This document shows, in pieces, positions 560-18,834 of a stretch of DNA of 18,834 nucleotides. A program made the position numbers and the translations under genes. Below the pieces are notes generated by a model. The model was not told where the DNA came from. It saw nothing but the letters and a program-made list of their open reading frames with translations, and made no database searches. Numbering within the stretch: the first letter of the stretch is position 1; each line of letters starts with the position of its first letter. The stretch spans positions 36,331 through 55,164 of the forward strand of contig JBBDRO010000017.1 in NCBI GenBank assembly GCA_040905425.1, in the 5' to 3' direction. Origin of the DNA: Gemmatimonadota bacterium. Lineage in GTDB: Bacteria; Gemmatimonadota; Gemmatimonadetes; Longimicrobiales; RSA9.

Positions 560-2473
560 ATGGCCACCACAGAGGCCGGTCTCCGGGAGAGCCCGGGCAC
601 AGCCATGGCGCCAGCGGCGCCCACTCCGGTCCGTGTGGACCTCCACACGGTGGAAGTGGTCTCCGACGCCGGCGAAGGTGCGCAGAAATGCGGGCAGATC
701 TTCGGCTCCGTGTCCGCCAAGATGGGCAACGGGGTGTGGACGGTGGAGATCATCCCCGCCGAGATCCAACCCCCGCCGCGCAACGCCGAGGGCGCCAGCG
801 GCAACCGCATCCGCATCGGCTCGCGGGAGGTCACCAACTGGGGTGACGAGACGGACCTCATGGTGGCGTTCAACGAACAGGTTCTGCTGGGCCGCCATCA
901 CCTGGGTGCCATCGGCCAGGACGCCATCATCCTGCTGGAGGACATGTGGGCCACCCACGCCGACGCGGACATCCGCACGGCGTGGGCCGAGGCCATGGCG
1001 GAGCTCTCCGAGGCCAGCTACCGCATCGTGCTGGTGCCCATGGAGGAGCAGTGCCTCACCGTGGTGGACAACGCCCGCAAGGGCAAGAACATGTTTGCCC
1101 TGGGCATGCTGGCGTGGATCTACGACCGGGACGTGGAGCGCATCAAGGAAGAGATTGCCTTCCAGTTCCGCAAGAAGAGCCAGGAGATCTACGACCGCAA
1201 CGTGGAGCTCCTGGAGCTGGGCTACGGGTGGGCCGCCGAGCACCTGGACTTCCGCTTCGAGGTACCCGCAACCACGGATCAGACCGCCAAGGTGGTCATG
1301 AACGGCAACCAGGCCGCGGCGCTGGGCGCGGTGGCGGCCGGGATGGAGCTGGCGGCCATGTACCCCATCACCCCCGCCACCTCCGTTTCCCACCACCTGG
1401 GTGAGGTGTTCGAGACGTATGGCGGCATCGTGCATCAGGCGGAGGATGAGATCGCTGCCGTGGGCGTGGCCATCGGCGCCTCGTGGGCCGGCAAGGTGGC
1501 GTTCACCATCACCTCGGGGCCGGGCCTGGCGCTGAAGACGGAATTCCTGGGGCTGGCCGCCATGACCGAGACGCCGCTGGTGCTGCTGGACGTGCAGCGC
1601 GGCGGCCCCAGCACCGGGCTGCCCACCAAGGTGGAGCAGTCGGACCTGCTGGCGGCCATCTACGGCCAGCCGGGGGACGCGCCCCACGTGGTCATGGCGG
1701 CGGCCACCATCGAGGAGTGCTTCCACGCCATGATCACCGCCCGGCGCATCGCGGAGACCTTCCGCATGGTGGTCATGGTGCTCACGGACGCCAATCTGGC
1801 CACCGGCGTGCAGCCCTTCGCGCGGCCCGATCCGAGCACGGCATGGCAGGGCGCGCCCATCGATCTGTCCGCCCCACCCGAGGGGCTCCGGCCGTACGAC
1901 TGGGACACCCGGACCGGGCTCTCCCGCCGCTTCGTGCCGGGGATGGTGGGCGGCGCCCACACCGCCACCGGGCTGGCGCACGACGAGCGCAGCAAGGTGG
2001 CCTACGACGCCGCCACCGTGCAGCGCAGCCACGCCATGCGCAGCCGCAAGCTGGCGGTCTTCCAGCAGACGCTCCGCCCACCGGAGCTCTACGGCCCGGC
2101 GGAGGGTGACCTCCTGGTGGTGGGCTGGGGCAGCACCAAGGGCGCCATCGAGGAGGCGGTGGATCGGGGGCGCGCCGCGGGACTCGAAGTCTCCTCACTG
2201 CACCTGACCTTCCTGTCCCCGCTGCAGCCGGGCCTGAAGGAGATCTTCCAGCGCTTCGGCAGGGTCATGACGGTGGAGATCAACTACAGCGACGAGCCGG
2301 ACGACCCCTTCATCACGCCCGAGAACCGCCGCTACGGGCAGCTGGCGCTGCTGCTGCGGGCACAGACGCTCGTGGACGTGGATTGCTGGACGCGGGTGCT
2401 GGGCGAGCCGCTCCGACCGGGCGCCATCCTGCGCGCCATGCAAGCAAAGCTGACCAGGGGAGGTGCCGCGTGA
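560..2473 (+). CDS. korA: 2-oxoacid:ferredoxin oxidoreductase alpha subunit (gamma-alpha fusion, KorA/OorA type), 637 aa
   Basis: N-terminal gamma domain (SDAGEGAQKCG, KNMFALG); motifs GNQAAALG, YPITPA, QAEDEIAA, TSGPG, QRGGPSTGLPT, GWGST. Start placed at ATG 560 after GAAAGG, not at the track's 452. Substrate specificity not determinable. Confidence 0.92.
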   Translation: MATTEAGLRESPGTAMAPAAPTPVRVDLHTVEVVSDAGEGAQKCGQIFGSVSAKMGNGVWTVEIIPAEIQPPPRNAEGASGNRIRIGSREVTNWGDETDLMVAFNEQVLLGRHHLGAIGQDAIILLEDMWATHADADIRTAWAEAMAELSEASYRIVLVPMEEQCLTVVDNARKGKNMFALGMLAWIYDRDVERIKEEIAFQFRKKSQEIYDRNVELLELGYGWAAEHLDFRFEVPATTDQTAKVVMNGNQAAALGAVAAGMELAAMYPITPATSVSHHLGEVFETYGGIVHQAEDEIAAVGVAIGASWAGKVAFTITSGPGLALKTEFLGLAAMTETPLVLLDVQRGGPSTGLPTKVEQSDLLAAIYGQPGDAPHVVMAAATIEECFHAMITARRIAETFRMVVMVLTDANLATGVQPFARPDPSTAWQGAPIDLSAPPEGLRPYDWDTRTGLSRRFVPGMVGGAHTATGLAHDERSKVAYDAATVQRSHAMRSRKLAVFQQTLRPPELYGPAEGDLLVVGWGSTKGAIEEAVDRGRAAGLEVSSLHLTFLSPLQPGLKEIFQRFGRVMTVEINYSDEPDDPFITPENRRYGQLALLLRAQTLVDVDCWTRVLGEPLRPGAILRAMQAKLTRGGAA

Positions 2474-3414
2474 GCTGCTCACTGCTGGGCTGCGCCGTGG
2501 ATGACGACCGCGTCTTCGAGATGGACGACTACGAGGGCGCCATGGCCCGCTGGTGCCCGGGTTGCGGGGACCACTCCGTGCTCACGGCGGTGGAGAAGCT
2601 GCTCACCGCCGAACAGCTGCGGCCGGAGAACACGGTCTTCGTGTCGGGGATCGGCTGCTCGAGCCGCTTCCCGCACTATCTGAAGACCTTCGGTTTCCAC
2701 GGCCTGCACGGGCGCGCGCTGCCGGTGGCCACGGGCGTGAAGCTGAACCGGCCCGAACTGGACGTCTTCGTGGTCATGGGAGACGGGGACTGCACCTCCA
2801 TCGGCGCGGGCCACTGGCTGCACGCGGTGCGCTACAACATGAACCTCACCGCGCTGATGCTGGACAACAACATCTACGGGCTGACGAAGATGCAGACGTC
2901 ACCCACCACGCCGCAGGGCTTCAAGAGCAACACGCAGCCCACGGGCAGCTACCTGCCGGCGCTGAATCCCATCGAGGCCACGCTGGGCATCACCAACGCC
3001 TCCTTCGTGGCGCAGACGGCGGAGTGGATCCCCGCCCATCTCTACGCCACCATCGAGGCCGCCTATCGCCACAAGGGCTTTGCCTTCGTGCGCATCCTCC
3101 AGCGCTGCCCGGTCTTCACGCCGCTCATCTACGCCGAGGCGGTGCGGCGGCCGGACGTGGTGGAGTTGATGGTCCATGAGGACGGCGTGCAGGTCCCCTC
3201 GCTCGAGGCCACGTACAAGAACCGGATCGCGCATGACCCCCTCGACCTGGACGGGGCGCGGCGGCTGGCCGAGACGTCGGACCGCATCCGCCTGGGCGTG
3301 TTCTTCCGGGACGAGTCCCGGCCCCGCTACGAGGAACTGCGGCGCGTGGCCAGCAGGAGTGCGGAGGAAAAGGTGACGCTGCTCAACCAGGAGCTGGATC
3401 GCTATGCCGTCTGA
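2470..3414 (+). CDS. korB: 2-oxoacid:ferredoxin oxidoreductase beta (TPP-binding) subunit, 314 aa
   Basis: WCPGCGD, SGIGCSSR, HGR, GDGD...DNNIYG TPP/Mg motif, ILQRCP. GTG start overlaps the korA stop (GTGA 2470-2473), with a GGAGGT RBS upstream. Confidence 0.92.
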   Translation: MSCSLLGCAVDDDRVFEMDDYEGAMARWCPGCGDHSVLTAVEKLLTAEQLRPENTVFVSGIGCSSRFPHYLKTFGFHGLHGRALPVATGVKLNRPELDVFVVMGDGDCTSIGAGHWLHAVRYNMNLTALMLDNNIYGLTKMQTSPTTPQGFKSNTQPTGSYLPALNPIEATLGITNASFVAQTAEWIPAHLYATIEAAYRHKGFAFVRILQRCPVFTPLIYAEAVRRPDVVELMVHEDGVQVPSLEATYKNRIAHDPLDLDGARRLAETSDRIRLGVFFRDESRPRYEELRRVASRSAEEKVTLLNQELDRYAV

Positions 3415-4393
3415 GGATCGGACCACCCGGGCCCTGGCGGCGCTGGCCGCCCCGAGGGAGAGCTTTCACGCGGCGGTGGCCGCGGCCGTGGACCAGGTAC
3501 GCGCCCTGGTGGATGCGAACCGCGCGCCCGCGGCCGGTCCCGCCGCCCGTGCCGCGGACGGCCTGGGTGCCTTCGCGGCGGGCCGCATCGACGCCGAGCG
3601 CTTTGCCGGCCTCTTTGCCGGTGAGCGCGTGCTGGATGATCGCGCGCTGGACGGGATGGAGGCCGCGCTCGCGGTGCTCACCGAAACGGCGGCGGCCGCC
3701 GATGACGCCTATCGGGTGGACGTGCCCTCAGGCGGGTCGCTGGGGGTGGAGGTGGACCGGGTGCTGGCCCACCTGGGGCGCGCCTTTGCGGCGGCCCGGG
3801 CCGTGGAGAGGGCGCGCACGGGCGGAGCGGCCGGGGAGGATCCGGCGGCACCCTGGCCCTTTGCCCGCTGGAACCGGGCAGAGCGGGCCATCGCGCCGCC
3901 GCTCGTGGTGGAGGTGGACGGCGCCGACCTGGCCGCCGGCGGCCTGGCCGCCTTCCTGGACGGTGGGCAGAAGCTGGTCCTGGTGGTGCGCGGCCCGGCG
4001 GCGCCCGCCCCGCTCGTGGGCATGATCACGCCGGGCACGCTCGTACTGCAGGCCACCAGCCCGGCGGCGCTCGGCCAGCTGGACGGCTGGGACGGCCCGG
4101 CCGTGGCGGCGCTGCTGCCCGCGGGCGCGGCCGAGTTCGCGCACCGGCCGCTGGCGGGCCAGACGCTGCGGGAGCGGCTGGCGGTCACGGCACTGCCCGA
4201 CGCGGCGCCGGTGCGCTGGCTGGGCGGGCGCTCGCCCTGGCAGCAGGGTCAGGAGTTGGCGCAGCTGCGCTCGCTCGCGGCGGAAGGGGTAGCCCCGCAG
4301 CAAGCGCCCGCCGAGCCCGATCAGGATGTGCAGCCCACCGATCGGCTGGCCGCCTGGCTCCTGCGGCAGACCCATCTCCCCGACGTGGCGTAG
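3404..4393 (+). CDS. Hypothetical 329-aa protein; degenerate, Cys-free paralog of the C-terminal TPP-binding half of the adjacent PFOR
   Basis: Overlaps korB by 11 nt and ends 12 nt before rnfB; AGGAG upstream. Collinear by-eye similarity to the PFOR, e.g. AFAAARAVERARTGG vs AFVAVRRAELILDGG, ERAIAPPLVVEVDG vs EFQLCPPIMAIGGDG, QLRSLA vs QLRELA. Confidence 0.8.
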   Translation: MPSEDRTTRALAALAAPRESFHAAVAAAVDQVRALVDANRAPAAGPAARAADGLGAFAAGRIDAERFAGLFAGERVLDDRALDGMEAALAVLTETAAAADDAYRVDVPSGGSLGVEVDRVLAHLGRAFAAARAVERARTGGAAGEDPAAPWPFARWNRAERAIAPPLVVEVDGADLAAGGLAAFLDGGQKLVLVVRGPAAPAPLVGMITPGTLVLQATSPAALGQLDGWDGPAVAALLPAGAAEFAHRPLAGQTLRERLAVTALPDAAPVRWLGGRSPWQQGQELAQLRSLAAEGVAPQQAPAEPDQDVQPTDRLAAWLLRQTHLPDVA

Positions 4394-4405
4394 GACGGGG
4401 GCGCC

Positions 4406-5260
4406 GTGCAACCGCTGCTGATCCTAAGTTCCGCCGCCATCCTGGGCGGTGTGGGGCTCACCTTTGGTGTGCTCATCGCCGCGGCCAACCGCAAGCTGCG
4501 CGTATGGGAGGATCCCCGCATCGACGCCGTCAATGACATGCTCCCCGGCGCCAACTGTGGCGCCTGCGGCTTTGCCGGCTGCCGGGCCTTCGCGGAGGCC
4601 ACGATCACCGGCCAGGTGGCGCCCGCCGTGTGCACCGTCATGGGTCCGGATGAGCGCCAGGACGTGGCCGCCTTCCTGGGCGTGGACGCGGGGCAGGCCA
4701 ACAAGCGAGTGGCGCGGCTGCTGTGCGCCGGCGGCAGTGACGTGGCGGTCCAGAAGGCCACCTACCGCGGGCTGGCCAGCTGCGCCGCCGCCGTGGCGGT
4801 GAGCGGGGGTGGGAAGGGATGCGCGTGGGGTTGCGTGGGCCTGGCCGACTGCGCCGTGGTCTGTGACTTCGACGCCATCACCATGAACGAGCACGACCTA
4901 CCGGTCGTGGATCCCGAGAAGTGCACGGCGTGCAACGACTGCGTGGAGGCCTGCCCGCTGGGCCTCTTCACGCTCATGCCCATGGATCAACACCTCCTCG
5001 TGCAGTGCCGCAACCTGCTGCACGGTGAGGACGCCACGGACGTCTGTGCCGTGGCCTGCAATGCCTGCGGACGCTGTGTACAGGACGCGGCGCCCGGCCT
5101 CATCGAGATGCGGACCAACCTGGCCGTGATCGACTACTCGAAGATCGAACTGGAGAACGCCGCCGCCATCGCGCGCTGCCCCACCGGTGCCATCACCTGG
5201 CTCGACGGGATGCAGTTCGCGGAGGAACCGGCCGCCCCAGCCGGGAGTGAAGCGCGATGA
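4406..5260 (+). CDS. rnfB: Rnf/Rsx electron transport complex subunit B (membrane-anchored polyferredoxin), 284 aa
   Basis: N-terminal TM helix; EDPRI...LPGANCGACGFAGC FeS domain; CAWGCVGLADCAVVCDFDAI, KCTACNDCVEACP, CNACGRC...CPTGAI; GTG start. Confidence 0.93.
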   Translation: MQPLLILSSAAILGGVGLTFGVLIAAANRKLRVWEDPRIDAVNDMLPGANCGACGFAGCRAFAEATITGQVAPAVCTVMGPDERQDVAAFLGVDAGQANKRVARLLCAGGSDVAVQKATYRGLASCAAAVAVSGGGKGCAWGCVGLADCAVVCDFDAITMNEHDLPVVDPEKCTACNDCVEACPLGLFTLMPMDQHLLVQCRNLLHGEDATDVCAVACNACGRCVQDAAPGLIEMRTNLAVIDYSKIELENAAAIARCPTGAITWLDGMQFAEEPAAPAGSEAR

Positions 5261-8200
5261 TCATGAAGCGGAAGTCCAACGCCCCCGAGTCCGGCCCTCG
5301 GTACCCCGGGGTCCCCGAAGCCACCGATGGCAGCGGCGCCGTAGTATACGTGGAGACGGCCGCCAGCGAGGCGGCGGGCGCGTATCCCATCACGCCGTCC
5401 ACCCAGATGGGTGAGGGGTGGGCGCTGGCCGTGGCGGCCGGCCACGAGAACGTGCACGGCCGGCGCCTGCTCTTCTTCGAGCCGGAGGGTGAGCACGCCG
5501 CGGCCGCGGTCACGGCGGGCATGAGCATGACCGGGCTCCGGGCCACGAACTTCTCCAGTGGCCAGGGCATAGCCTACATGCACGAGTCGCTCTACGCGGC
5601 GGTGGGCAAGCGCCTGACCTACGTGCTGAACGTGGCGGCGCGCGCCATGACCAAGCACGCGCTGAACGTGCACGCCGGCCACGATGACTACCACGCCGTG
5701 GATGACACCGGCTTCCTGCAGTTCTTTGCCAAGGACGTCCAGGAGACCGCCGATCTGACGCTCATCGCGCACCGCGCGGCGGAGCTCTCGCTGACGCCGG
5801 CGCTGGTGGCGCAGGACGGCTTCCTCACCAGCCACGTCATCGAGTCCATCAAGCTGCCGGAGCGGGAGCTCATCGCCGAGTACCTGGGTGATCCCGCGGA
5901 CATGATCGAGTGCCCCACGCCGGCGCAGCGGCTGACCTTCGGGCCCACGCGGCGGCGCATTCCCGAGATGTTCGACGTGGACTACCCGACCATGCTGGGG
6001 CCCGTGCAGAACCAGGACGCCTACGCCCAGGGCGTGGCCGCCCAGCGCCCCTTCTACTTCGATCACGCCCGCGCGTTGATCGACCGGTCCTTCGAGGAGT
6101 ACGCCGCGCTCACGGGCCGCCGCTACGAGCGGGTCATGGGCTACCGGCTGGAGGATGCTGAGTACGTCATCGCGGGGCAGGGCTCCGTGGTGCCGAACGC
6201 CGAGGCCGTGGTGGATTTCATGCGCGCGCAGGGCGTCAAGGTGGGCGTGCTGAACCTGACGCTCTTCCGGCCTTTCCCGGCCGACCTGGTCACGCAGCTG
6301 CTGCGCGGCAAGCAGGCCGTGGCCGTGCTGGAGCGCGTGGACCAGCCGCTGGCCGTGGACCCGCCGCTGCTGCGGGAGATCCGGGCCGCCTTCGGCCAGG
6401 CGCAGGAGAATGGCCGGGCCGAGGCCGTCAACGTCCGCAAGGGCCGCGGGGTGCCGGCCCTGGCCAAGCCGCACGCCGACCTGGCCTCGGTGCGCGCGGA
6501 CGAGCTGCCGGACTTCTACTCGGGCGGCTTCGGCTTTGGCAGCCGCGATCTGCAGCCGGGCGATATCGTGGCCGCGGTGCGGAACATGATGCCGGAGGGT
6601 GCGGGGCGTCGTCGCTTCTACCTGGGGCTGGACTTCATCCGCAAGGATACGAAGCTGCCCAAGCTGCAGGTCTGGCAGGAGGAGCTGCTGGAGAACTACC
6701 CGCACCTGGCCCACCTCTCCCTGGAGGCGGTGGAGGGCGTGGATCTGAGCGGCGAGGGATCGGTGGCGCTGCGCATCCACTCGGTGGGCGGGTGGGGCGC
6801 CATCACCACCGGCAAGAACGTGGCGCTCACCGCCTTCGAACTGGCGGGGCTGCACATCAAGGCCAATCCCAAGTACGGGTCCGAGAAAAAGGGGCAGCCC
6901 ACCACCTTCTACGCCACGCTCTCCCGCGAGCCGATCCGGGTGAACGCGGAGCTGAAGAACGTCAACGTGGTGCTCTCGCCCGATCCCAACGTCTTCCGCC
7001 ACTCCAACCCGCTCGCGGGGCTGGGGCAGGACGGCGTGTTCGTCATCCAGAGTGATCTCGAGCCGGCGGCCCTCTGGGCCGTGCTCTCGGAGGACGCCCG
7101 CCGCACGGTGCGGGAGAAGAACATCCAGGTCTACGTGCTGGACGGCTTCAGCATTGCCAACGAGGAGGCCAGCGATCCGGAGCTCCGCTACCGGATGCAG
7201 GGCGCTGCCTTCATGGGGGCCTTCTTCCGCACCGGACCCCTGGCCCGCAACGAGAACCTCTCCGAGGAGCGCATCTTCGAGGGCATCGAGACGCAGCTAC
7301 GCGCCAAGTTCGGCAAGCTGGGCGAGCGGGTCATCCAGGACAACGTGCGCGTCATCCGGCGGGGCTGGGACGAGGTCCTTCAGGTGGACACCAGCGTGGA
7401 GGTGGCGGTGGAGGCGGAGGTCCACGACACCATGCGGCCGATCCCCGCGCTGCTGAACCATCCCGACGCCGAGCAGGGGCTGGGCAATCCGGGCAGGTTC
7501 TTCGAGCAGGTGTGCGCCGTCTGCGCCGTGGGCCAGGACGTCATCGCGGATCCGTTCACCGCCGTGAGCGCCATGCCCGCCGCCAGCAGCAGCGTGCGGG
7601 ACATGACGGACATCCGCTTCGAGGTGCCCGACTTCATTGCGGAGAAGTGCACGGGCTGCAGCCAGTGCTGGGTGCAGTGCCCCGACGCGGCCATCCCGGG
7701 ACTGGTCACGCCCGTGGAGGACCTCATCGACCGGGCCATCGACCACGCCGCCAACGGCCGCGCACTGGAGCGAGTACGGCAGATCTCCAAGCACCTTGCC
7801 AAGGAGTCAAGGAAGGTGATGGAGGCGGTGCCGTTCCACGACTTCGGCCAGGTGGTCTCCGCCGCCTACCACAACGTGGCGGACAAGCTGGGCTGGGAGC
7901 CGGAGCGGCGCGCCGAGCTGGACGAACAGTTCGCGGCCGTGCACTCCGTGCTTGCCGAGTTCCCGCTGGCCCGGACCGCGCCCTTCTATGACGTGCACGA
8001 GGGCAAGGCCAAGGGGACCGGAGGCCTCCTCTCCATCACCATCAATCCCGAGGCGTGCAAGGGCTGCAACATCTGCGTGGAGGTGTGCCCCGAGAACGCC
8101 CTGATCACCATCAAGCAGGACGAGGAGGTGGTGGAGCGGCTGCGCCGCAACTGGAACTTCTGGGAGGCGCTGCCCGACACGTCGGACCGCTACGTCAACG

Positions 8201-10362
8201 TGAGCAACGTGGACGAGGGCATCGGCGTGCTGAGTTCGCTGCTGCTGAAGAAGAAGACGTACCGCTCCATGGTGGGCGGAGACGGCGCCTGCATGGGCTG
8301 CGGTGAGAAGACCACGGTCCACCTGGTGACGAGCACCATCGAGGCGCTCATGCAGCCCCGCGTGAAGCGCTTCGTGGCCCGCCTGGAGGAGCTCATCGGC
8401 CGGCTGGACGAGCAGGCGCGGGACCTCCTCTCCGCGGATGCGGACCTGGATCTGGCGGCGCTCGCGGAGGGCGCGCATGTGGACGTGCCGCTGGACGACG
8501 GGAAGCGGGAGACGCTGCAGCGCATCGTCGCCACGCTGAAGGCGCTGCGGGATCTCAAGTGGCGCTATGAGGACGGCCCGAGCGGCGAGGGGCGCGCCAG
8601 CATGGGCATCACGAACAGCACCGGGTGCTCGTCGGTGTGGGCCAGCACCTACCCCTACAACCCGTATCCGTATCCCTGGGCCAACCACCTCTTCCAGGAC
8701 GCGCCCTCGCTGGCCATCGGCGTCTTCGAGGGGCACATGCGGAAGATGGCGGACGCCTTCGTGGCGGTGCGCCGGGCGGAGCTCATCCTGGACGGCGGCT
8801 ACGACGCCGTGCGCGACGAGCCGTTCTTCACCGCCTTCGACTACCGGGAGTTCACCGACGAGGAGTTCCAGCTGTGCCCGCCCATCATGGCCATCGGCGG
8901 GGACGGGGCCATGCTGGACATCGGCTTCCAGAACCTCTCGCGGCTGCTGGCCTCCGGCAAGCCGATCCGCGTCATGGTGCTGGACACGCAGGTCTACTCG
9001 AACACGGGCGGCCAGGCGTGCACCAGCGGCTTCACCGGCCAGGTGGCCGACATGTCCGCCTACGGCAAGGCGCAGCATGGCAAGACGGAGACGCGCAAGG
9101 AACTGGCGCTGCTCGCGCTGGCGCACCGCGGCGCCTTCGTGCACCAGTCATCCCAGGCCAACGCCAGCCACCTCATCGCGGGCGTCATCAAGGGCCTGAA
9201 CTCGCGGCGCCCGGCCGTCTTCAACATCTACACGCCGTGCCCGGTGGAGCACGGGCTGCCCGACGAGTGGGCGCCCTACGGCGCCAAGCTGGCGCTGGAA
9301 TCGCGCGCCTTCCCGTTCATGACCTATGACCCGGACGGCGGCGCCTCCATCGCGGAGTGCATCTCCCTGGAGGGCAACCCGGCCATCGACGACCCGTGGC
9401 CCACCTACGAGCTCACCTTCGTGAATGACGAGGGGGAGGAGGAGACGCTGGAGCTGCCGCTATCCACCGCCGACTGGGCGGCCACGGAGGGCCGCTTCAA
9501 GAAGCACTTCAAGGAGCTGAAGCGGGAGGCGTGGACCGAGGACATGGTGCCCTTCCACGAGTTCGTCTTCATGGGTGCGGCGGAGCGTGAGGGCAAGGAG
9601 CCCTTCATCCACGCCCTGGGCAAGGACCGCCAGCTGGTGCGCAAGTCCGTGTCCATGGAGATGGTCACGCTGGCGGAGGACCGGCTGCTCTTCTGGGGCC
9701 AGCTCCGGGAGCTGGCCGGCCTGGCCGCGCCCGAGGTGGTACGGGACGCCGTGCGTGATCAGCTGGAGGCCGAGTTCGATGCCCGCGCGGAGGCGCTCAG
9801 GACCGAGTACGAGGGCCGCATGGCGGAGCTGAAGGCCGCCTACCCGCCGCTCATCGCGCGGCGCATGGCGGAGGGCCTCCTCAAGGCCGGCGCCGGCGAC
9901 CGCACGGTGGCCGAGCTGCTGGAGGTGGCGGACCGGACCCCGGGCCTGCAGCCCATCCGTCTCTCGGACATCTCCTCCGCGCTGGCCGCCGAGCCGGCGC
10001 CCTCCGGCAACGGCGGCGGCGTGGCCGTGGCGGAGGCGCCGGCGGCGGTGGAGGCCGGTGCGGCGCCCGCCCCCGCGCCGGCCGCGGTGGAGGAGGATGA
10101 GGACGGCGGCCTGGCCATGGAGCCGTACATCGACACGGCCCGCTGCACCACGTGCAACGAGTGCACGAACCTGAACGGCAAGATGTTCGCCTACAATGAG
10201 GACAAGCAGGCCTACATCAAGGACCCGAAGGCCGGCACCTTCGCGCAGCTCGTGCAGGCCGCGGAGCGCTGCCCGGCGGCACTCATCCACCCCGGCACGC
10301 CGCTCAATCCCAAGGAGAAGGACCTGGAGAAGTGGCTCAAGCGGGCGGAGCCGTTCAGCTGA
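5257..10362 (+). CDS. por: Single-chain pyruvate:ferredoxin/flavodoxin oxidoreductase (Por/NifJ-like), unusually large (1701 aa), with C-terminal tethered ferredoxin
   Basis: AYPITPST, EGEHAA, VGGWGAITTGKN, YGSEKKGQPT, two CxxCxxCxxxCP motifs (7648-7683, 8056-8091), ACMGCGEK, STGCSSVW, GGDGAMLDIGFQN, DTQVYSNTGGQ, YTPC. ATGA overlap with the rnfB stop. Pyruvate specificity is inferred from the family. Confidence 0.9.
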   Translation: MIMKRKSNAPESGPRYPGVPEATDGSGAVVYVETAASEAAGAYPITPSTQMGEGWALAVAAGHENVHGRRLLFFEPEGEHAAAAVTAGMSMTGLRATNFSSGQGIAYMHESLYAAVGKRLTYVLNVAARAMTKHALNVHAGHDDYHAVDDTGFLQFFAKDVQETADLTLIAHRAAELSLTPALVAQDGFLTSHVIESIKLPERELIAEYLGDPADMIECPTPAQRLTFGPTRRRIPEMFDVDYPTMLGPVQNQDAYAQGVAAQRPFYFDHARALIDRSFEEYAALTGRRYERVMGYRLEDAEYVIAGQGSVVPNAEAVVDFMRAQGVKVGVLNLTLFRPFPADLVTQLLRGKQAVAVLERVDQPLAVDPPLLREIRAAFGQAQENGRAEAVNVRKGRGVPALAKPHADLASVRADELPDFYSGGFGFGSRDLQPGDIVAAVRNMMPEGAGRRRFYLGLDFIRKDTKLPKLQVWQEELLENYPHLAHLSLEAVEGVDLSGEGSVALRIHSVGGWGAITTGKNVALTAFELAGLHIKANPKYGSEKKGQPTTFYATLSREPIRVNAELKNVNVVLSPDPNVFRHSNPLAGLGQDGVFVIQSDLEPAALWAVLSEDARRTVREKNIQVYVLDGFSIANEEASDPELRYRMQGAAFMGAFFRTGPLARNENLSEERIFEGIETQLRAKFGKLGERVIQDNVRVIRRGWDEVLQVDTSVEVAVEAEVHDTMRPIPALLNHPDAEQGLGNPGRFFEQVCAVCAVGQDVIADPFTAVSAMPAASSSVRDMTDIRFEVPDFIAEKCTGCSQCWVQCPDAAIPGLVTPVEDLIDRAIDHAANGRALERVRQISKHLAKESRKVMEAVPFHDFGQVVSAAYHNVADKLGWEPERRAELDEQFAAVHSVLAEFPLARTAPFYDVHEGKAKGTGGLLSITINPEACKGCNICVEVCPENALITIKQDEEVVERLRRNWNFWEALPDTSDRYVNVSNVDEGIGVLSSLLLKKKTYRSMVGGDGACMGCGEKTTVHLVTSTIEALMQPRVKRFVARLEELIGRLDEQARDLLSADADLDLAALAEGAHVDVPLDDGKRETLQRIVATLKALRDLKWRYEDGPSGEGRASMGITNSTGCSSVWASTYPYNPYPYPWANHLFQDAPSLAIGVFEGHMRKMADAFVAVRRAELILDGGYDAVRDEPFFTAFDYREFTDEEFQLCPPIMAIGGDGAMLDIGFQNLSRLLASGKPIRVMVLDTQVYSNTGGQACTSGFTGQVADMSAYGKAQHGKTETRKELALLALAHRGAFVHQSSQANASHLIAGVIKGLNSRRPAVFNIYTPCPVEHGLPDEWAPYGAKLALESRAFPFMTYDPDGGASIAECISLEGNPAIDDPWPTYELTFVNDEGEEETLELPLSTADWAATEGRFKKHFKELKREAWTEDMVPFHEFVFMGAAEREGKEPFIHALGKDRQLVRKSVSMEMVTLAEDRLLFWGQLRELAGLAAPEVVRDAVRDQLEAEFDARAEALRTEYEGRMAELKAAYPPLIARRMAEGLLKAGAGDRTVAELLEVADRTPGLQPIRLSDISSALAAEPAPSGNGGGVAVAEAPAAVEAGAAPAPAPAAVEEDEDGGLAMEPYIDTARCTTCNECTNLNGKMFAYNEDKQAYIKDPKAGTFAQLVQAAERCPAALIHPGTPLNPKEKDLEKWLKRAEPFS

Positions 10363-11735
10363 TGTTCAAGCCGCCTTCGCTGGTCCAGCTTCCCGGGGTG
10401 CGCGGCATGGCGGCCCGGCCCGGTTTCCGGCACGGCGTGCATCCGCCGGACGCCAAGGAACTGTCCAGGGCCAGGACCATCCGGCGCATGCCTTTCCCGG
10501 CGGAGGTGGTGCTCCCGCTGCGGCAGCACACGGGCAAGCCGGCCCGGCCGCTGGTGAAGCCCGGCGACCGGGTGGAACGCGGGGACAAGATCGCGGCCGC
10601 CGACGGCTTCGTGTCCGTGCCCATCCACGCCTCGGCGGCGGGGGTGGTGAAGTCCATCGGCTGGTGGCCGCACGCCGACGGCACCATGGCCGAGGCCATC
10701 CGCATCCAGGTGGCGCGCTTCAGCGCCCAGCTGCCGCGGCCGCGCATGGTGCCGCACTGGGAGGGGCTCACCCCCGCCCAGGTGGTGGCGGCCGTACAGG
10801 AGGCGGGCGTGGTGGGGCTGGGCGGCGCCGCCTTCCCCGCGCACGTGAAGCTGCAGCCGCCGCCGGACTGCCCGATCGAATTCCTGCTCGTCAACGGCGC
10901 CGAGTGCGAGCCCTACCTGACCAGCGACCACCGGGTCATGGTGGAGTACGCGGAGCGCGTCTGGTTCGGCGTGCGCATCATGATGCACGCGCTGGGCGTG
11001 CCCCGGTGCGTGGTGGGCGTGGAGAAGAACAAGCCGGACGCCATCGAGGCGCTCCGGGCCGCCGCGCCCACTGGTCTGGACGTGCGCGTGGAGGCGCTCA
11101 CGGTGAAGTATCCGCAGGGCGCCGAGAAGATGCTCATCCACGCTGTCACGGGGCGCGAGGTGCCCTCGGGCAAGCTGCCCATGCACGTGGGCACCGTGGT
11201 GCAGAATGTGGGCTCGATTGCCGCCATTGCCGAGGTCTTCGAGACGGGCATGCCGCTCGTGGAGCGCATCGTCTCGGTCACCGGCCCCGCCATCAAGGAC
11301 CCGCAGAACCTCATCGTGCCCGTGGGCACCAAGCTGCGCGACGTGCTGGACTACTGCGGCGGGCTCACGGAGGACGTGGCGGAGATCGTCTTCGGCGGCC
11401 CCATGATGGGCATTGCCCAGCCGGATCTGGACGCGCCACTCATCAAGGGCACGAGCGGCGTGGTGGCCCTCACGAAGGCGCAGGCGCGGCCGCGCACGGT
11501 GCACCCCTGCATCCAGTGCGCGCGCTGCCTGGACGCCTGCCCGGTCTTCCTGAACCCATCCAAGCTGGGGCGGCTGGCGCAGGCCGGCCGCTACGAGGAG
11601 ATGGCCAAGCACCACCTGGCCGACTGCATGCTGTGCGGCTCGTGCTCCTACGTGTGCCCGTCCAGCATTCCGCTGTCCCAGATGTTCGCCCTGGCCAAGG
11701 CGGCCGAGCGCCGCAGGAAAGAGCAGGCCGCGTGA
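10362..11735 (+). CDS. rnfC: Rnf/Rsx complex subunit C (NAD/FMN-binding, 2x[4Fe-4S]), 457 aa
   Basis: GVHPP, PLRQHTG, PIHAS, AGVVGLGGAAFP, NGAECEPYLTSD, KYPQGAEK, GGPMMG, CIQCARCLDACP, CMLCGSCSYVCPS. TGATG overlap with the por stop. Confidence 0.95.
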   Translation: MFKPPSLVQLPGVRGMAARPGFRHGVHPPDAKELSRARTIRRMPFPAEVVLPLRQHTGKPARPLVKPGDRVERGDKIAAADGFVSVPIHASAAGVVKSIGWWPHADGTMAEAIRIQVARFSAQLPRPRMVPHWEGLTPAQVVAAVQEAGVVGLGGAAFPAHVKLQPPPDCPIEFLLVNGAECEPYLTSDHRVMVEYAERVWFGVRIMMHALGVPRCVVGVEKNKPDAIEALRAAAPTGLDVRVEALTVKYPQGAEKMLIHAVTGREVPSGKLPMHVGTVVQNVGSIAAIAEVFETGMPLVERIVSVTGPAIKDPQNLIVPVGTKLRDVLDYCGGLTEDVAEIVFGGPMMGIAQPDLDAPLIKGTSGVVALTKAQARPRTVHPCIQCARCLDACPVFLNPSKLGRLAQAGRYEEMAKHHLADCMLCGSCSYVCPSSIPLSQMFALAKAAERRRKEQAA

Positions 11736-12823
11736 GCACGGTGGACCGGGCCACTGCAGCCGCGCGCCTGCGGGGCATCCCCGGGCCCGGCGCGGGGCGG
11801 GGCGCCAGCGAGCGCACGCCCGACTGGGGCCGTGTGGCGCTGCAGCTCACCGCCTCCCCGCACATCAAGGCGCCCGACAGCACCGAGCGCATCATGTGGA
11901 CGGTGGTGGCCAGCCTGCTGCCCGTGGTGCTGGCGGCTGGCTGGTACTTCGGCGTGAGCGCCTGGCTGGTGATCGGCACCGCCACCGTGGGCGCGGTGGG
12001 CACCGAGCGGCTGCTCAGCGGCGGCGCAGCCGTACGGGACGGCTCGGCGGCCATCACCGGCATCCTCCTGGGGCTCACGCTGCCGGCGGGCATGCCGCTG
12101 TGGATGGCGCTGCTCGGCGGCGTGTTCGGCATTGCTTTCGGCAAGCTGCTCTTTGGCGGGCTCGGGCAGAACGTGTTCAACCCCGCGCTCGTGGGGCGGG
12201 CTTTCCTGCAGGCGGCCTTCCCGGTGGCCATCACCACCTGGCCGGCGCCCCGCCAGGGCTTCCTGGCGCAGGTGGGGGACACCTTCGCGCTGCCGCTCAT
12301 GAGCCCGGCCGTGGACGTCACCACCACCGCCACGCCGCTGGCGGAGATGAAGTTCGAGGGCACTACCACGGCGCTGAATGACCTGGTGCTGGGCAGTACA
12401 GCCGGTTCGCTGGGCGAGACGGCGGGCATCCTCATCCTGCTGGGCGGCGCCTACCTGGCGCTCCGCAACTATCTGGACTGGCGCATTCCGGTGGGCATCC
12501 TGGGGACGGTGGCGCTGCTCTCGGCGGCGCTCAACCTGGTGGACCCCGCGTTCCCCGATCCGCTCTTCATGATCTTTTCCGGCGGGTTGCTGCTGGGCGC
12601 GGTCTACATGGCCACGGACATGGTCACCTCTCCGGTCACCCGCGCCGGCGCCTGGATCTTCGCGGCGGGGATCGGCTTCCTGGTGGTGCTCATCCGCGTG
12701 TGGGGCGGGCTGCCGGAGGGGGTCATGTACGCCATCCTGCTCATGAACGCCATGGTGCCCTTCATCGACCGGGCCACCCAGCCCCGGGTGTTCGGCACCG
12801 TCCGCGGCAGGGAGGGCGCGTGA
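11732..12823 (+). CDS. rnfD: Rnf/Rsx complex subunit D, 363 aa
   Basis: SPHI, DGSAAITG, KLLFGGLGQNVFNPALVGRAFL, FMN-attachment site DVTTTATPL, GSLGET, ATDMVTSP, PEGVMYAILLMN. GTGA overlap with rnfC. Only the last 363 aa of the track's 875-aa ORF. Confidence 0.95.
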   Translation: MSTVDRATAAARLRGIPGPGAGRGASERTPDWGRVALQLTASPHIKAPDSTERIMWTVVASLLPVVLAAGWYFGVSAWLVIGTATVGAVGTERLLSGGAAVRDGSAAITGILLGLTLPAGMPLWMALLGGVFGIAFGKLLFGGLGQNVFNPALVGRAFLQAAFPVAITTWPAPRQGFLAQVGDTFALPLMSPAVDVTTTATPLAEMKFEGTTTALNDLVLGSTAGSLGETAGILILLGGAYLALRNYLDWRIPVGILGTVALLSAALNLVDPAFPDPLFMIFSGGLLLGAVYMATDMVTSPVTRAGAWIFAAGIGFLVVLIRVWGGLPEGVMYAILLMNAMVPFIDRATQPRVFGTVRGREGA

Positions 12824-13503
12824 GCACGCAGCCCGTACCCGGCAACGGCCCTGGGGTGGCGGAGGTGCAGTCCTGGCGGCTGGTCACCACGCTGGCGGTG
12901 GCGGGGATGCTCGCGGGGCTGCTCATCGTGCTGGTCTTCCAGTGGGCGCACCCGCGCATCCTGGATCACCAGGAGCGTGCCGTCACGGCCGCCGTGGACG
13001 TGGTCCTCTCCGCGCCGGAGCGGACGGAGCGCTACTTCGTGGTCGACGGTGAGCTCCGCGCCGAGGCCCCCGAGGGCAGTGACACCCTCAGACTGGAGCG
13101 GGTCTTCCTGGGCTTCGACGCGTCCGATGCACCGATAGGCTACGCGGTGCGCGGCGGGGAGGCGGGCTTCCAGGACATCATCACCGTGCTCTTCGGCTAC
13201 CACCCCGCGCGCGACGAGGTGCTGGGCATGCTGGTGCTGGACAACAAGGAGACCCCCGGCCTGGGAGACAAGATCGTCAAGGACACGGCGTTCGTGGCGG
13301 CGTTCCAGGGTGTGCGCGCGCCGATCCAGGGCGTCAAGGCGCGGGCGGGCAGCGGCGCGGAAACCGAGGTGGACATGATCACCGGCGCCACCATCTCCTC
13401 GCGCGCCGTCATCGACATCATCAACCACCGCATCGAGGCGCTCGGGCCCATTCTGAAGCGTCATCTGGAAACGCGGGTAGCCGGCAGTGGAGCGTCCACA
13501 TGA
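12820..13503 (+). CDS. rnfG: Rnf/Rsx complex subunit G, 227 aa
   Basis: N-terminal TM helix, GFQDII, ETPGLGDKI, covalent-FMN motif DMITGATISSRAV. GTGA overlap with rnfD after GGAGG. Confidence 0.93.
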   Translation: MSTQPVPGNGPGVAEVQSWRLVTTLAVAGMLAGLLIVLVFQWAHPRILDHQERAVTAAVDVVLSAPERTERYFVVDGELRAEAPEGSDTLRLERVFLGFDASDAPIGYAVRGGEAGFQDIITVLFGYHPARDEVLGMLVLDNKETPGLGDKIVKDTAFVAAFQGVRAPIQGVKARAGSGAETEVDMITGATISSRAVIDIINHRIEALGPILKRHLETRVAGSGAST

Positions 13504-14192
13504 GGGCCACGACCCCGACGGAGGACCTGCTCCGCGGCATCTGGCGGGAGAACCCCGTGCTGATCCAGCTCCTGGGGCTGTGCCCCGCGCTGGCGGTCAC
13601 CAACACCGTGGCCAACGGCATTGCCATGGGGCTGGCCACCACTTTCGTGCTGCTGGGCTCCAGCCTCCTGGTCTCCCTGCTGTCCGACTACATCCCCAAG
13701 GAAGTGCGCATCAGCGCCTACATCCTGATCATCGCCACCTTCGTGACGCTGGTGGACCTGATCCTGGCGGCGGTGGTGCCTGACATCCACAAGGCGCTGG
13801 GCGCCTTCATTGCGCTCATCGTGGTGAACTGCATGATCCTGGGCCGCCAGGAGGCGTTCGCGTCCCGGCGCCCGGTGGGCCGGGCCCTGCTGGATGCCGC
13901 GGGCACGAGCGCGGGCTTCATGATCGCGCTGCTCCTGATGAGCGGCTTCCGCGAGCTGCTCGGCAACGGCTCGCTCCTGGGCGTGGACGTCATGGGCCCC
14001 GGCTTCGAGCCCTGGATCATCATGATCCTGCCCGCCGGCGGCTTCTTCATGCTGGGCTTCATCCTGCTGGCGCTGGCCTGGTGGCAGGGGCGCGCCCAGC
14101 CGCCGGTCAAGCCGCGGCGCTGGCCGAACGGCGTGACCACGACCACGCATGCCAACGCCGCCCCGCGCGAGCGTGACAAGGTGGTGGCCTGA
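13500..14192 (+). CDS. rnfE: Rnf/Rsx complex subunit E, 230 aa
   Basis: ENPVLIQLLGLCPALAVT, EVRI, LIVVNCMILGR, RELLGNG, ILPAGGF. ATGA overlap with rnfG. Confidence 0.95.
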   Translation: MRATTPTEDLLRGIWRENPVLIQLLGLCPALAVTNTVANGIAMGLATTFVLLGSSLLVSLLSDYIPKEVRISAYILIIATFVTLVDLILAAVVPDIHKALGAFIALIVVNCMILGRQEAFASRRPVGRALLDAAGTSAGFMIALLLMSGFRELLGNGSLLGVDVMGPGFEPWIIMILPAGGFFMLGFILLALAWWQGRAQPPVKPRRWPNGVTTTTHANAAPRERDKVVA

Positions 14193-14767
14193 TGAATGAG
14201 CTGATCTGGATCCTGATCAGCGCCATGGTGGTCAACAACTTCACCCTGGCCCTCTTCCTGGGACTGTGTCCCTTCCTGGGTGTGTCCGGGCGCGTGGCCA
14301 CGGCGCTCCGCATGGGCGCGGCCAACATCTTCGTCATGGTCATCACGTCGCTGGCCGCGTGGTTCCTGAACAGCTACGTGCTGGCCGACGCGCCCTACCT
14401 GCGCATCATCTCCTTCATCGTGGTGATCGCCTCGCTGGTGCAGATCGTGGAGATGGCCATCAAGAAGCTGAGCCCCGCGCTCTTCCGGGAGCTGGGCATC
14501 TTCCTGCCGCTCATCACCACCAACTGCGCCATCCTGGGCCTGGCCATCTTCCAGACCAATCGTGGCTACGGACTGGCGGAAGGGCTCTTCTTTGCCGTGG
14601 GCGCCGGCCTGGGTGTGACCCTGGCCCTGGTGCTCATGGCTTCCATCCGCGAGCGCATCGAGCTCTCGGACGTTCCGGCGCTGGCCCGCAACATGGGGCT
14701 GGTGCTCATTCTGGCCGGCACGCTGTCGCTGGCCTTCACCGGCTTCGCGGGATTGTTCAGCTCATGA
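14192..14767 (+). CDS. rnfA: Rnf/Rsx complex subunit A, 191 aa
   Basis: VNNFTLALFLGLCPFLGVS, LGIFLPLITTNCAILG, IRER, LSLAFTGFAG. TGATG overlap with rnfE. Confidence 0.95.
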   Translation: MNELIWILISAMVVNNFTLALFLGLCPFLGVSGRVATALRMGAANIFVMVITSLAAWFLNSYVLADAPYLRIISFIVVIASLVQIVEMAIKKLSPALFRELGIFLPLITTNCAILGLAIFQTNRGYGLAEGLFFAVGAGLGVTLALVLMASIRERIELSDVPALARNMGLVLILAGTLSLAFTGFAGLFSS

Positions 14768-17884: not shown

Positions 17885-18373
17885 TTACTCGTCCAGCTCC
17901 GCCAACTCCGCACGCAGCCGCGGGTGCGCCCACCACAGGTAGCCGCCCATGGTTCCGGCCGCTGCCAGCACCGCCAGCGTCACCGACCCCCAGGACACCG
18001 CCCCCGCCACCGACGCGCCGAGCACGCCCAGGACCACCGTCACACCCACCAGACCCACGATCAGCGCCGCCAGCACCGCGTAGTACTGCCGGGGGTGCAG
18101 CTCGGTCTCGAAGAAGAGCCAGCTGGCCGCCATGCCGGCGGCCAGCGACACCAGAAGATGGACCCCGTTGAAGGCCACGACAGGCCCGAACTCCGCGCCC
18201 GGTTGGCCGATCCGGGAGGGGCCCAGCAGCTCAGCGCCCAGCCGTGCCGCCGTCTCCCACGGGGCCTGACCGGCCGCCATGTTCACGACCCCGTAGAGCA
18301 CCACCACGGTACCGTAGCCGATGAGTCCCGCCGTCAGTCCCTGAATCAGCGTCTCGCTCGTGCTCTTCTGCAT
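17885..18373 (-). CDS. Hypothetical integral membrane protein (~4 TM), 162 aa
   Basis: GGAGGGAGG RBS before the ATG; four hydrophobic segments; convergent with dsbD; no recognised family. Confidence 0.8.
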   Translation of the reverse strand: MQKSTSETLIQGLTAGLIGYGTVVVLYGVVNMAAGQAPWETAARLGAELLGPSRIGQPGAEFGPVVAFNGVHLLVSLAAGMAASWLFFETELHPRQYYAVLAALIVGLVGVTVVLGVLGASVAGAVSWGSVTLAVLAAAGTMGGYLWWAHPRLRAELAELDE

Positions 18374-18395
18374 GGTAGCCTCCCTCCGGAAGCAC

Positions 18396-18433
18396 AGACC
18401 GGCCGCCGCCGCGGGTGCGGCAACGACCGGTCT
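18396..18433 (-). other. 17-bp strand-specific RNA hairpin upstream of the membrane-protein gene
   Basis: Minus strand AGACCGGUCGUUGCCGC-ACCC-GCGGCGGCGGCCGGUCU: continuous stem whose three non-Watson-Crick pairs are all G-U. Confidence 0.55.
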
Positions 18434-18449
18434 CGTTCGGTACGGCGGT

Positions 18450-18474
18450 CCCGCGCCCCGGGGCGGGGCGCGGG
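18450..18474 (-). terminator. Perfect 11-bp inverted repeat just after the stop of the 18488 gene; possible terminator or stabilising hairpin
   Basis: CCCGCGCCCCG-GGG-CGGGGCGCGGG, 13 nt downstream of the stop codon; no U-tract on the minus strand. Confidence 0.45.
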
Positions 18475-18487
18475 TTGGATTCTGCTG

Positions 18488-18834
18488 CTACTTGCCCAGG
18501 ATGTTCTCCAGGTTCACGCCGGCCCGCACCGCCACTCCGTAGTCTGTCTTGACCTGACGGATGGAGGAGGTCAGCAGCGCCTCGAGCAGGAACGGGTTGT
18601 GGATGGCCGATCCCGGATAGAGCGCCAGCTCGTAGTTGAACGTGGCGCCCTCGGCCGTGGTGTAGACGCCGTCATCCGTGTTCCATGGCGAACCGGCGCC
18701 GCAGGAGTTGTTGCTGCGGCAGGTCTTCCAGTTCGGATTGATCTGCGTGAGCAGCCGGTCCAGTTCCTCGGCCAGGAACTCCAGCCGGTTCTCGGCCGTC
18801 AACTGGAGCGAGCGGGCCACGGCCTCGCTGCCAT
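18488..18834 (-). CDS. C-terminal part (start beyond the window) of a probable multiheme c-type cytochrome
   Basis: Frame is open to the window edge (GSEAVARSLQ...). GATFNYELALYPGSAIHNPFLLEALLTSSI resembles the C-terminal helical 'A.FNY...HNP....LL..SI' segment of cytochrome c552-like multiheme proteins. No CxxCH within the visible part, so the product call is tentative. Confidence 0.5.
   Translation of the reverse strand, partial: GSEAVARSLQLTAENRLEFLAEELDRLLTQINPNWKTCRSNNSCGAGSPWNTDDGVYTTAEGATFNYELALYPGSAIHNPFLLEALLTSSIRQVKTDYGVAVRAGVNLENILGK

Follow-up and report, generated by a model that had tools for sequence, protein, structure and literature searches.

Orf329, the 329-residue product of an open reading frame (ORF) in an 18,834-nt stretch of DNA from a Gemmatimonadota bacterium (contig JBBDRO010000017.1; the whole stretch is hereafter called the window), is supported by profile comparison as a remote, cofactor-less paralogue of domain VI of PFOR, closer to the long single-chain PFOR whose gene, por, lies 0.9 kb downstream than to KorB, the beta subunit encoded immediately upstream. 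The reading favoured here, at a rough probability of 0.55, is that this non-catalytic paralogue has been kept as an accessory structural subunit of a module made of KorAB, PFOR and Rnf. In single-chain PFOR, domain VI corresponds to the beta subunit of the multi-subunit 2-oxoacid:ferredoxin oxidoreductases (OFORs). The original prediction, made from the letters of the window, had taken Orf329 for a dead copy of the half of PFOR that binds thiamine diphosphate (ThDP), and this identification is borne out by profile-profile alignment, shuffled controls, the ranking of structural matches and the loss of cofactor motifs. The elements compared are:

3404-4393, + strand: orf329, an intact ORF of 329 aa with an ATG start.
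8257-9936, + strand: the live domain VI of PFOR (residues 1001-1560), counterpart of Orf329, with a Foldseek match to 6cin at E 1e-12.
3785-3916, + strand: strongest matching segment, codons 128-171 of orf329 (FAAARAVE...RWNRAER..APPLVVEVDG), aligned with PFOR 1167-1210.
4136-4201, + strand: second matching segment, codons 245-266 of orf329 (FAHRPLAGQTLRERLAVTALPD), aligned with PFOR 1354-1375 (FMTYDPDGG...ISLEGNP).

Orf329 contains 25% alanine and no cysteine, and it has no Pfam match (E≤0.01) and no NCBIfam match, Rnf models included. Its family is large, which makes profile comparison possible: at E≤1e-3, 471 relatives were found among 8000 candidates scored, the named ones all being called 'hypothetical protein' and none carrying a Pfam domain. 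An alignment of 46 members (A1) was drawn from the 120 relatives listed of these 471, and a second pair of alignments, with 61 rows for Orf329 (A2) and 47 rows for PFOR (A5), was built from loci only. The target profiles, six segments of PFOR and KorB, were built from 46 and 60 related loci. The alignment of A1 with PFOR 1001-1560 by hhalign gives a score of 37.1 (P 6.2e-4, probability 28%); the six other profiles (PFOR I, II, III, IV-V, the C-terminal tail and KorB) score 12.1-22.7, with KorB at 18.2. None of 198 column shuffles of A1, which preserve composition and per-column conservation, reaches 37.1 (mean 16.5, standard deviation 2.8, maximum 25.6), and the reversed alignment scores 20.5. 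These shuffles speak against Ala-rich composition as the source of the similarity, an explanation that the original prediction had itself raised. The second pair, A2 against A5, is aligned at E 5.6e-4 over 158 columns, Orf329 119-273 being matched with PFOR 1159-1383.

Two segments of Orf329 are significant separately and lie collinear with PFOR. Residues 128-171 score 37.2 (P 5.8e-5, 0/40 shuffles) and run up to the vestigial GDG motif (V171-D172-G173), while residues 245-266 score 28.8 (P 8.5e-4, 0/40 shuffles). The hhalign results, the shuffles and both segments thus indicate that Orf329 and a bona fide domain VI share an ancestor. The best Smith-Waterman path follows the central blocks that had been aligned by eye, and the best hhalign path of the N-terminal 110 residues coincides with another of them (Orf329 76-95 with PFOR 1077-1096). 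Seven of the nine by-eye blocks reappear in hhalign at low threshold, the SLGVEV block partially, and the pairings of QLRSLA with QLRELA and of DRLAAWLL with RRMAEGLL are not reproduced. The PFOR stretch 1172-1207, in which the strongest match lies, is left unaligned by phmmer to the PFORs of Moorella and D. africanus. A match in this seemingly lineage-specific stretch, together with the lack of a match to KorB, suggests that Orf329 arose from this PFOR lineage and not from a generic beta subunit.

The AlphaFold2 model of Orf329, computed on A1, has a predicted local distance difference test score (pLDDT) of 87.4 and a predicted template modelling score (pTM) of 0.79, and displays three regions:

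Orf329 1-100: N-terminal helical region.
Orf329 104-263: alpha/beta core.
Orf329 311-322: tethered, conserved C-terminal helix.

The nine best Foldseek matches of this model in the PDB are all OFORs (PFOR or the beta subunit of oxalate oxidoreductase). Moorella PFOR (6cin_D) stands at the top (E 5e-3, probability 0.96, query-normalised template modelling score, TMq, 0.30), followed by oxalate oxidoreductase beta (5exe_F, E 2.7e-2) and the PFOR of D. africanus; other ThDP enzymes (DXS, E1-beta, transketolase) come below the OFORs. As a calibration, the AlphaFold2 model of PFOR 1001-1560 (pLDDT 79) matches 6cin with the E value given above and TMq 0.40, and its matches to two other genuine ThDP families, acetolactate synthase and benzoylformate decarboxylase, are no stronger than E 6e-3 to 4e-2. 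The level reached by Orf329 is therefore that of a true but distant superfamily member.

About 12 secondary-structure elements follow in the same order in the models of Orf329 and PFOR domain VI, in the register given by hhalign. Strands 167-172, 190-196, 213-217 and 233-237 of Orf329 pair with 210-215, 238-242, 294-299 and 320-325 of the domain VI model, respectively, and the hairpin at 244-263 also has its counterpart; strand 104-106 corresponds to 117-120 only approximately, being offset in hhalign. The long N-terminal helices of Orf329 (15-40 and 79-96) correspond to helices 16-59 and 81-105 of the domain VI model, which lie inside an insertion of PFOR. This insertion (PFOR 1027-1115, window 8335-8601) consists of about 89 mostly helical residues between the GCGE and TGCSS motifs and is absent from the PFORs of Moorella and D. 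africanus, as evident from the alignment to 6cin and 1b0p; Moorella has about five residues there. Judged from the models, Orf329 probably keeps this lineage-specific helical hairpin of PFOR. The claim that helices peculiar to this PFOR are retained is accordingly plausible at the level of secondary structure, and it does not reach significance by sequence (8/40 shuffles).

Throughout the family, the position of the GDG motif reads V/L-D-G: the first residue is never glycine (V, L, I, T or A), the aspartate is present in 32 of 46 members of A1 and 40 of 61 of A2, and the final glycine is invariant. Cysteine is lacking altogether in 27 of the 46 A1 members; the number of cysteines is 0-3 in A1 and up to 5 in A2, and they are not conserved, the richest column reaching at most 34% (A2). 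The loops TGCSSVW and DTQVYSNTGGQ and the PCPxEHG helices appear as gaps in the alignments of Orf329, and a beta-rich subdomain of PFOR of about 90 residues is absent. No member of A1 (0/46) matches PF02775 (TPP_enzyme_C) even at E≤10, a model that is matched by KorB (6.2e-27) and PFOR (1.1e-6). Composition, family columns and alignment gaps thus agree with what had been read in the single sequence, namely no cysteine, a broken GDG and the loss of both loops.

The Mg2+/diphosphate motif of ThDP enzymes is GDG-X(24-27)-N(N). Neither this GDG...NN motif nor the four cysteines that coordinate the proximal [4Fe-4S] cluster (CxxC..., TGCSS, ...C-P) are found in Orf329. On the evidence of its sequence, Orf329 should bind neither ThDP/Mg nor the proximal Fe-S cluster, and owing to this loss of motifs it would be no oxidoreductase by itself. 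Having the ancestry of a pyrophosphate (PP) domain without its functional elements, Orf329 is best regarded as derived from PFOR domain VI by degeneration and as lying outside the enzyme family.

The PFOR of the window carries, besides the helical insertion, a predicted single helix of about 50 residues (1493-1543) and a C-terminal Fer4_13 domain (1625-1678); section 3 of a 2026 review of PFOR diversity (PMC13768988) treats none of the three. The lineage-specific region of PFOR has 2116 relatives at E≤1e-5. Among the 120 of these listed, identity to the PFOR of the window over this region is 64-99%, most of the proteins are of about 1700 aa, the shorter ones (to 936 aa) include records named partial, and every named one belongs to Gemmatimonadota; several come from contigs whose lengths equal those of contigs with Orf329 relatives.

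The gene orf329 is part of an operon that lies entirely on the + strand of the window, and the genes were assigned from Pfam and NCBIfam matches. Its other members are:

632-2473, + strand: korA, alpha subunit of a two-subunit 2-oxoacid:acceptor oxidoreductase; Pfam POR, POR_N and PFOR_II.
2383-3414, + strand: korB, beta subunit; TPP_enzyme_C (6.2e-27) and PFO_beta_C.
4406-5260, + strand: rnfB, a long multi-cluster RnfB; FeS, Fer4 and rnfB models.
5257-10362, + strand: por, the single-chain PFOR of 1701 aa; domains I, II, III, V, VI and a C-terminal Fer4_13.
10332-11735, + strand: rnfC; RnfC_N, Complex1_51K, SLBB and Fer4, with TIGR01945 at 521 bits.
About 11837-12823 (start approximate), + strand: rnfD; RnfD match at residues 548-868 of a spurious 875-aa ORF.
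12700-13503, + strand: rnfG; FMN_bind.
13500-14192, + strand: rnfE; Rnf-Nqr.
14192-14767, + strand: rnfA; Rnf-Nqr.

KorA matches TIGR03710 with 528.7 bits, above the cut-off, and its domain III comes before domains I and II; the longest ORF of korA begins at 452 and its homologues begin at about 620-650. KorB is a live PP domain with CPGCGD, GCSS, GDGD and RCP motifs, in which the cysteines and GDG are invariant, and the true start of korB is probably near 2500. The start of rnfB lies 12 nt past the stop of orf329. The 875-aa ORF at 10196-12823 was considered as an RnfD with an N-terminal extension, RnfC being missing, and this was rejected when a normal rnfC was found at 10332-11735: the first approximately 540 residues are Arg/Pro/Gly-rich out-of-frame text, and the real rnfD is the last third. 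The ORF is thus an artefact of high-GC DNA, in which naive calling of the longest ORF produces a giant RnfD extension and no RnfC. Downstream of the operon, a 776-aa DsbD-like protein (DsbD_N, DsbD_TM, Thioredoxin_7) is encoded at 15506-17836 (+ strand), its best NCBIfam match being the selenoprotein TsoB model, far under the cut-off. The flanking ORFs at 1-549 and 17924-18832 have no family match, and an Rfam scan of the window gave 0 matches.

Conservation of this arrangement was followed in a sample of loci. Among 173 stretches matched in the search, a relative is encoded in 144; the best 80, all bearing orf329, were used. The order korA-korB-orf329-rnfB-por-rnfCDGEA is invariant wherever the contig reaches: upstream of orf329, korB is found in 77/77 and korA in 70/70 loci, and downstream rnfB in 79/79, PFOR in 70/70, rnfC in 47/47, rnfD in 42/42, rnfG in 37/37, rnfE in 34/34 and rnfA in 34/34. 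Co-occurrence with the long PFOR, proposed as a check by the original prediction, therefore holds in all 70 orf329-bearing loci that reach far enough. Seeming absence of korAB in one locus (L020) or of por in two (L035, L066) was considered as natural deletion and rejected, as the breaks coincide with 100-N scaffold gaps in 'chromosome' records, where the absence of an adjacent gene cannot be read as loss. Furthermore, por sits between rnfB and rnfC in 47/47 loci extending that far, and the operon has no free ferredoxin gene; together these observations hint at a direct coupling of PFOR to Rnf via the C-terminal ferredoxin domain of PFOR.

As to distribution, 69 of the 80 loci are titled Gemmatimonadota (including Gemmatimonadales and Longimicrobiales) and six Methylomirabilota/Rokubacteria, with one locus each for Planctomycetia, Deltaproteobacteria, Acidimicrobiia, Acidobacteriota and 'uncultured bacterium'. 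The whole operon with orf329 is seen in metagenome-assembled genomes (MAGs) not labelled Gemmatimonadota (L014, L024, L045, L046, L048, L051, L025, L054, L074, L076). Its presence outside the phylum reflects either lateral transfer or mis-binned contigs, all 80 loci being from MAGs.

The ATG of orf329 (3404-3406) lies within the final codons of korB, whose TGA stop is at 3412-3414 (ATGCCGTCTGA), giving an overlap of 11 nt (3404-3414, + strand). The register of the overlap is constant, the last codon of korB ending 7 nt past the start of orf329 in 75/75 loci. The overlap suggests translational coupling and co-production with KorB, as the original prediction had proposed when it described an intact ORF coupled to korB. 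The intactness is likewise seen across the sample, since a complete orf329 of 326-363 aa is present in 74/80 loci; of the other six, two are cut by contig ends and four have a tblastn match that begins after residue 1.

A profile search of 1.84 billion representatives recovered 588 clusters (50% identity) at E≤1e-3 and 324 at E≤1e-30, and the best 150 of the 588 are all stand-alone proteins of 320-457 aa. A 651-aa protein (P0266) that appeared to join KorB and Orf329 was rejected as a fusion; Arg/Ser/Pro-rich out-of-frame text occurs at its junction and inside the Orf329 part, which suggests a frameshifted assembly. When dN/dS was calculated (Nei-Gojobori, 15 non-overlapping closest pairs), values of 0.09-0.30 were recorded for orf329, and the same approach gave 0.014-0.21 for korB and 0.054-0.22 for rnfB. 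The gene is under clear purifying selection, somewhat looser than that on its neighbours. Frameshifts or stops, sporadic occurrence and a dN/dS near 1 are not seen, and purifying selection together with strict synteny shows that orf329 is not a decaying pseudogene; sporadic and decaying homologues were what the original prediction had named as speaking against its own reading. The G+C content is 0.74-0.77 over orf329 as compared to about 0.68-0.70 in korA/korB and por, and the AT skew goes negative in window 3001-4500; the high G+C and the skew change fit a faster-evolving, Ala-rich gene under weaker constraint.

The loop 41-70 (LGxFAAGRIDxERF) is the most conserved stretch outside the core and is poorly placed in the model (pLDDT ~58-61), and the C-terminal helix (DKLAAWLL, with D313 and L315-L320 invariant) sits on a variable linker. 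In the model, both look like docking elements. Many invariant residues of the core are found where strands end on the former cofactor face.

A mirror-tree comparison of 29 taxa from the loci, controlled for the mean divergence of the other operon proteins, places the known pair KorA-KorB at the top (partial r 0.51), followed by neighbouring domains of PFOR (V-VI 0.45, I/II-III 0.43). The partial r of Orf329 is 0.29 with RnfB (5/2000 permutations), 0.29 with PFOR-V (16/2000), 0.25 with PFOR-VI (26/2000), 0.19 with KorA (91/2000) and 0.13 with KorB (176/2000), and about -0.08 with PFOR I-II and RnfC. When 70% of the taxa were drawn 300 times, RnfB ranked first in 110 subsamples, PFOR-V in 105, PFOR-VI in 73, KorA in 7 and KorB in 5, so that RnfB, PFOR-V or PFOR-VI came out on top in 288/300. 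The same comparison gave 0.43 for PFOR-VI with RnfC, 0.38 for RnfB with PFOR-V and 0.31 for RnfB with the C-terminal ferredoxin domain of PFOR, values that rank shortly after that of KorA-KorB. The sequence divergences hint that PFOR and Rnf subunits co-evolve.

In PFOR, domains V (ferredoxin-like) and VI are packed together. The adaptor suggested by the original prediction, which would render the normally homodimeric PFOR asymmetric or bridge it to KorAB or Rnf, is plausible as a candidate role. If Orf329 is an accessory structural subunit, it would be produced together with KorB through translational coupling, and its vestigial cofactor face, the loop LGxFAAGRIDxERF and the helix DKLAAWLL would dock onto partner proteins. 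A cofactor-less copy of domain VI may grip the homologous ferredoxin-like part of RnfB, or PFOR V/VI, in the manner in which domain VI holds domain V. Such docking would position a ferredoxin-like module (RnfB and/or PFOR domain V/VI) relative to the oxidoreductases, and electrons from 2-oxoacid oxidation may then pass to Rnf without free ferredoxin.

Several observations weigh against this interpretation. The best BLASTP match between Orf329 and the 1701-aa PFOR has E 1.4 and falls outside the claimed region, and the Smith-Waterman score against PFOR 1035-1543 is 49 as compared to 40.2 +/- 5.7 for shuffles, of which 19/300 reach it (z 1.5). Semi-global alignment gives z 2.2 (9/300 shuffles). 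Pairwise evidence alone is not significant, and the pairwise comparison with shuffled controls that the original prediction had proposed thus gave no support by itself. The hhalign probability for the whole protein is only 28-30%, with 66% for the best segment, and Orf329 1-110 (8/40 shuffles reach its score) and 271-329 (7/40) are not significant alone. A profile search of PDB sequences returned 0 matches at E≤10, and an ESM Atlas search with Orf329 gave no usable match. Foldseek against the PDB gives no match at E≤1e-3 (best 5e-3), with TM-scores of 0.24-0.30 and root-mean-square deviations (RMSD) of 7-15 Å. The dN/dS of orf329 is 1.5-3 times that of its neighbours. The mirror-tree signal is weak, comes from 29 related taxa, could be caused by a shared rate class or history, and is at odds with the partner implied by translational coupling to korB. 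No genuine fusion of Orf329 with any partner was found in the best 150 of the 588 clusters or in a search for longer proteins.

The best placed of the alternatives, and itself unlikely, is that Orf329 is a third subunit of KorAB only, a dead PP domain seated on KorB/KorA. It would then touch neither PFOR nor Rnf, and might for instance lend stability or protection to the single-cluster enzyme in an aerobe. The constant 11-nt overlap (75/75 loci), which implies co-production, and the upstream korB of all 77 loci are as expected for such a subunit, and an extra OFOR subunit of unknown role (epsilon) is already described in the review's account of subunit composition (PMC13768988). The mirror-tree values point elsewhere, since those for KorA and KorB are the weakest of the positive ones and the two together are top partner in only 12/300 subsamples. 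Furthermore, Orf329 resembles PFOR-VI and not KorB (hhalign 18.2), and the sole KorB-Orf329 fusion reads as a frameshifted assembly.

Distinctly less probable is a role as a ligand sensor, in which PFOR, KorAB or Rnf would be modulated through a small molecule held in the vestigial pocket, such as CoA, a nucleotide or a ThDP-like compound. The purifying selection on orf329 would suit it, and so would the placement of many invariant residues at the C-terminal ends of core strands or shortly after them, or immediately ahead of strand 233-237, which are sites of ligand binding in alpha/beta folds: G173 and D175 follow strand 167-172, P201-L204 follow 190-196, Q216 is in 213-217, and G231/P232 precede 233-237. 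But the loops of the ThDP/diphosphate site are deleted, not mutated, no ligand-binding family is matched in Pfam or NCBIfam, and the conserved face is equally explicable as a protein interface.

It is improbable that Orf329 is an assembly or maturation factor, which would stand in for a PP domain only while PFOR or KorAB receives its cofactor or cluster and would be missing from the finished complex. Its paralogy to the domain in which ThDP and the proximal cluster are bound, strict membership of the operon and a constraint looser than that on the catalytic subunits are all compatible with such a factor, whereas nothing specific to chaperone action is seen and translational coupling suggests stoichiometric, not catalytic, amounts. 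To our knowledge, OFORs elsewhere mature without a dedicated factor of this kind.

Least probable of all is that the resemblance is convergent or compositional, Orf329 being an unrelated Ala-rich alpha/beta protein with a Rossmann-like strand-helix pattern, for although the insignificant pairwise scores (E 1.4, z 1.5), the hhalign probability of 28-30%, the lack of Foldseek matches at E≤1e-3, the RMSD of 7-15 Å and the 25% Ala would all be expected of such a protein, composition-keeping shuffles never reach the score (0/198), two collinear segments are separately significant, the match is specific to PFOR-VI among seven profiles that include another PP domain, the nine top Foldseek matches are all OFORs, and the strongest match falls in a stretch (PFOR 1172-1207) seemingly specific to this PFOR lineage.

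The reading of Orf329 as an accessory structural subunit derived from domain VI can be set beside known systems. With PFOR domain VI and the OFOR beta subunits (PF02775; 6cin, 1b0p/2c3y, 5exe chain F, 9bt4 chain C), Orf329 shares, as far as the predicted models show, the order of core strands and helices, and it has in common with them profile similarity in the segment before GDG and in the F-x-x-(Y/H)-D-P hairpin, and its best Foldseek matches. It differs from them in lacking the Cys ligands, the GDG...NN motif, the TGCSS and DTQVYSNTGGQ loops, the PCPxEHG helices and the beta-rich subdomain of about 90 residues, in standing alone as a protein of 329 aa, and in failing the Pfam model.

OFORs are listed as one-, two-, four- and five-subunit forms, and their composition is called far from understood, in the account of subunit forms in PMC13768988. 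According to the same account, the epsilon subunit of the five-subunit PFOR/OGOR of Aquificales has no counterpart among the seven domains of PFOR, and PorE of methanogens is a polyferredoxin. Like Orf329, these are extra small proteins in OFOR clusters whose role and position are described there as unknown; as they are described, Orf329 is set apart by being a recognisable dead copy of domain VI, without clusters. The beta half of a split-gene transketolase (PDB 6yaj) has the ThDP fold, is non-catalytic alone and is a weak Foldseek match (E 1.1). That protein is half of a live enzyme, active with its partner, whereas Orf329 has lost the cofactor-binding elements themselves. As compared to Rnf operons, orf329 is embedded with rnfB and a full rnfCDGEA set and is homologous to no Rnf subunit (no RnfA-G or RnfH match); here por and orf329 are both embedded, and por splits rnfB from rnfC. 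A term search of the main text of PMC13768988 returned neither 'Gemmatimonad' nor a relevant 'pseudo' or 'inactive' subunit, and a literature search of titles and abstracts gave no account of the Orf329 family, of a dead domain VI subunit or of a korAB-orf329-rnfB-por operon.

A more ambitious form of the proposal is that Orf329 is the keystone of a supercomplex in the mostly aerobic Gemmatimonadota, in which the two-subunit oxidoreductase and the 1701-aa PFOR are bolted onto Rnf, Orf329 gripping RnfB by mimicking the contact of domain VI with domain V, with no soluble ferredoxin; we regard this as quite doubtful.

Annotators now have a name for the family of Orf329 (588 clusters, its named members 'hypothetical protein'), that of a degenerate PFOR domain VI fixed within a conserved operon. 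For enzymologists, it offers a candidate for the physical coupling of two oxidoreductases and Rnf in a widespread phylum of soil and sediment. Orf329 is, moreover, a clear example in bacteria of a pseudoenzyme that descends from one domain of a neighbouring protein. If it is only a stabilising subunit, the outcome is a useful annotation and little else; if the supercomplex is real, the picture of ferredoxin-dependent energy conservation in aerobes would change.

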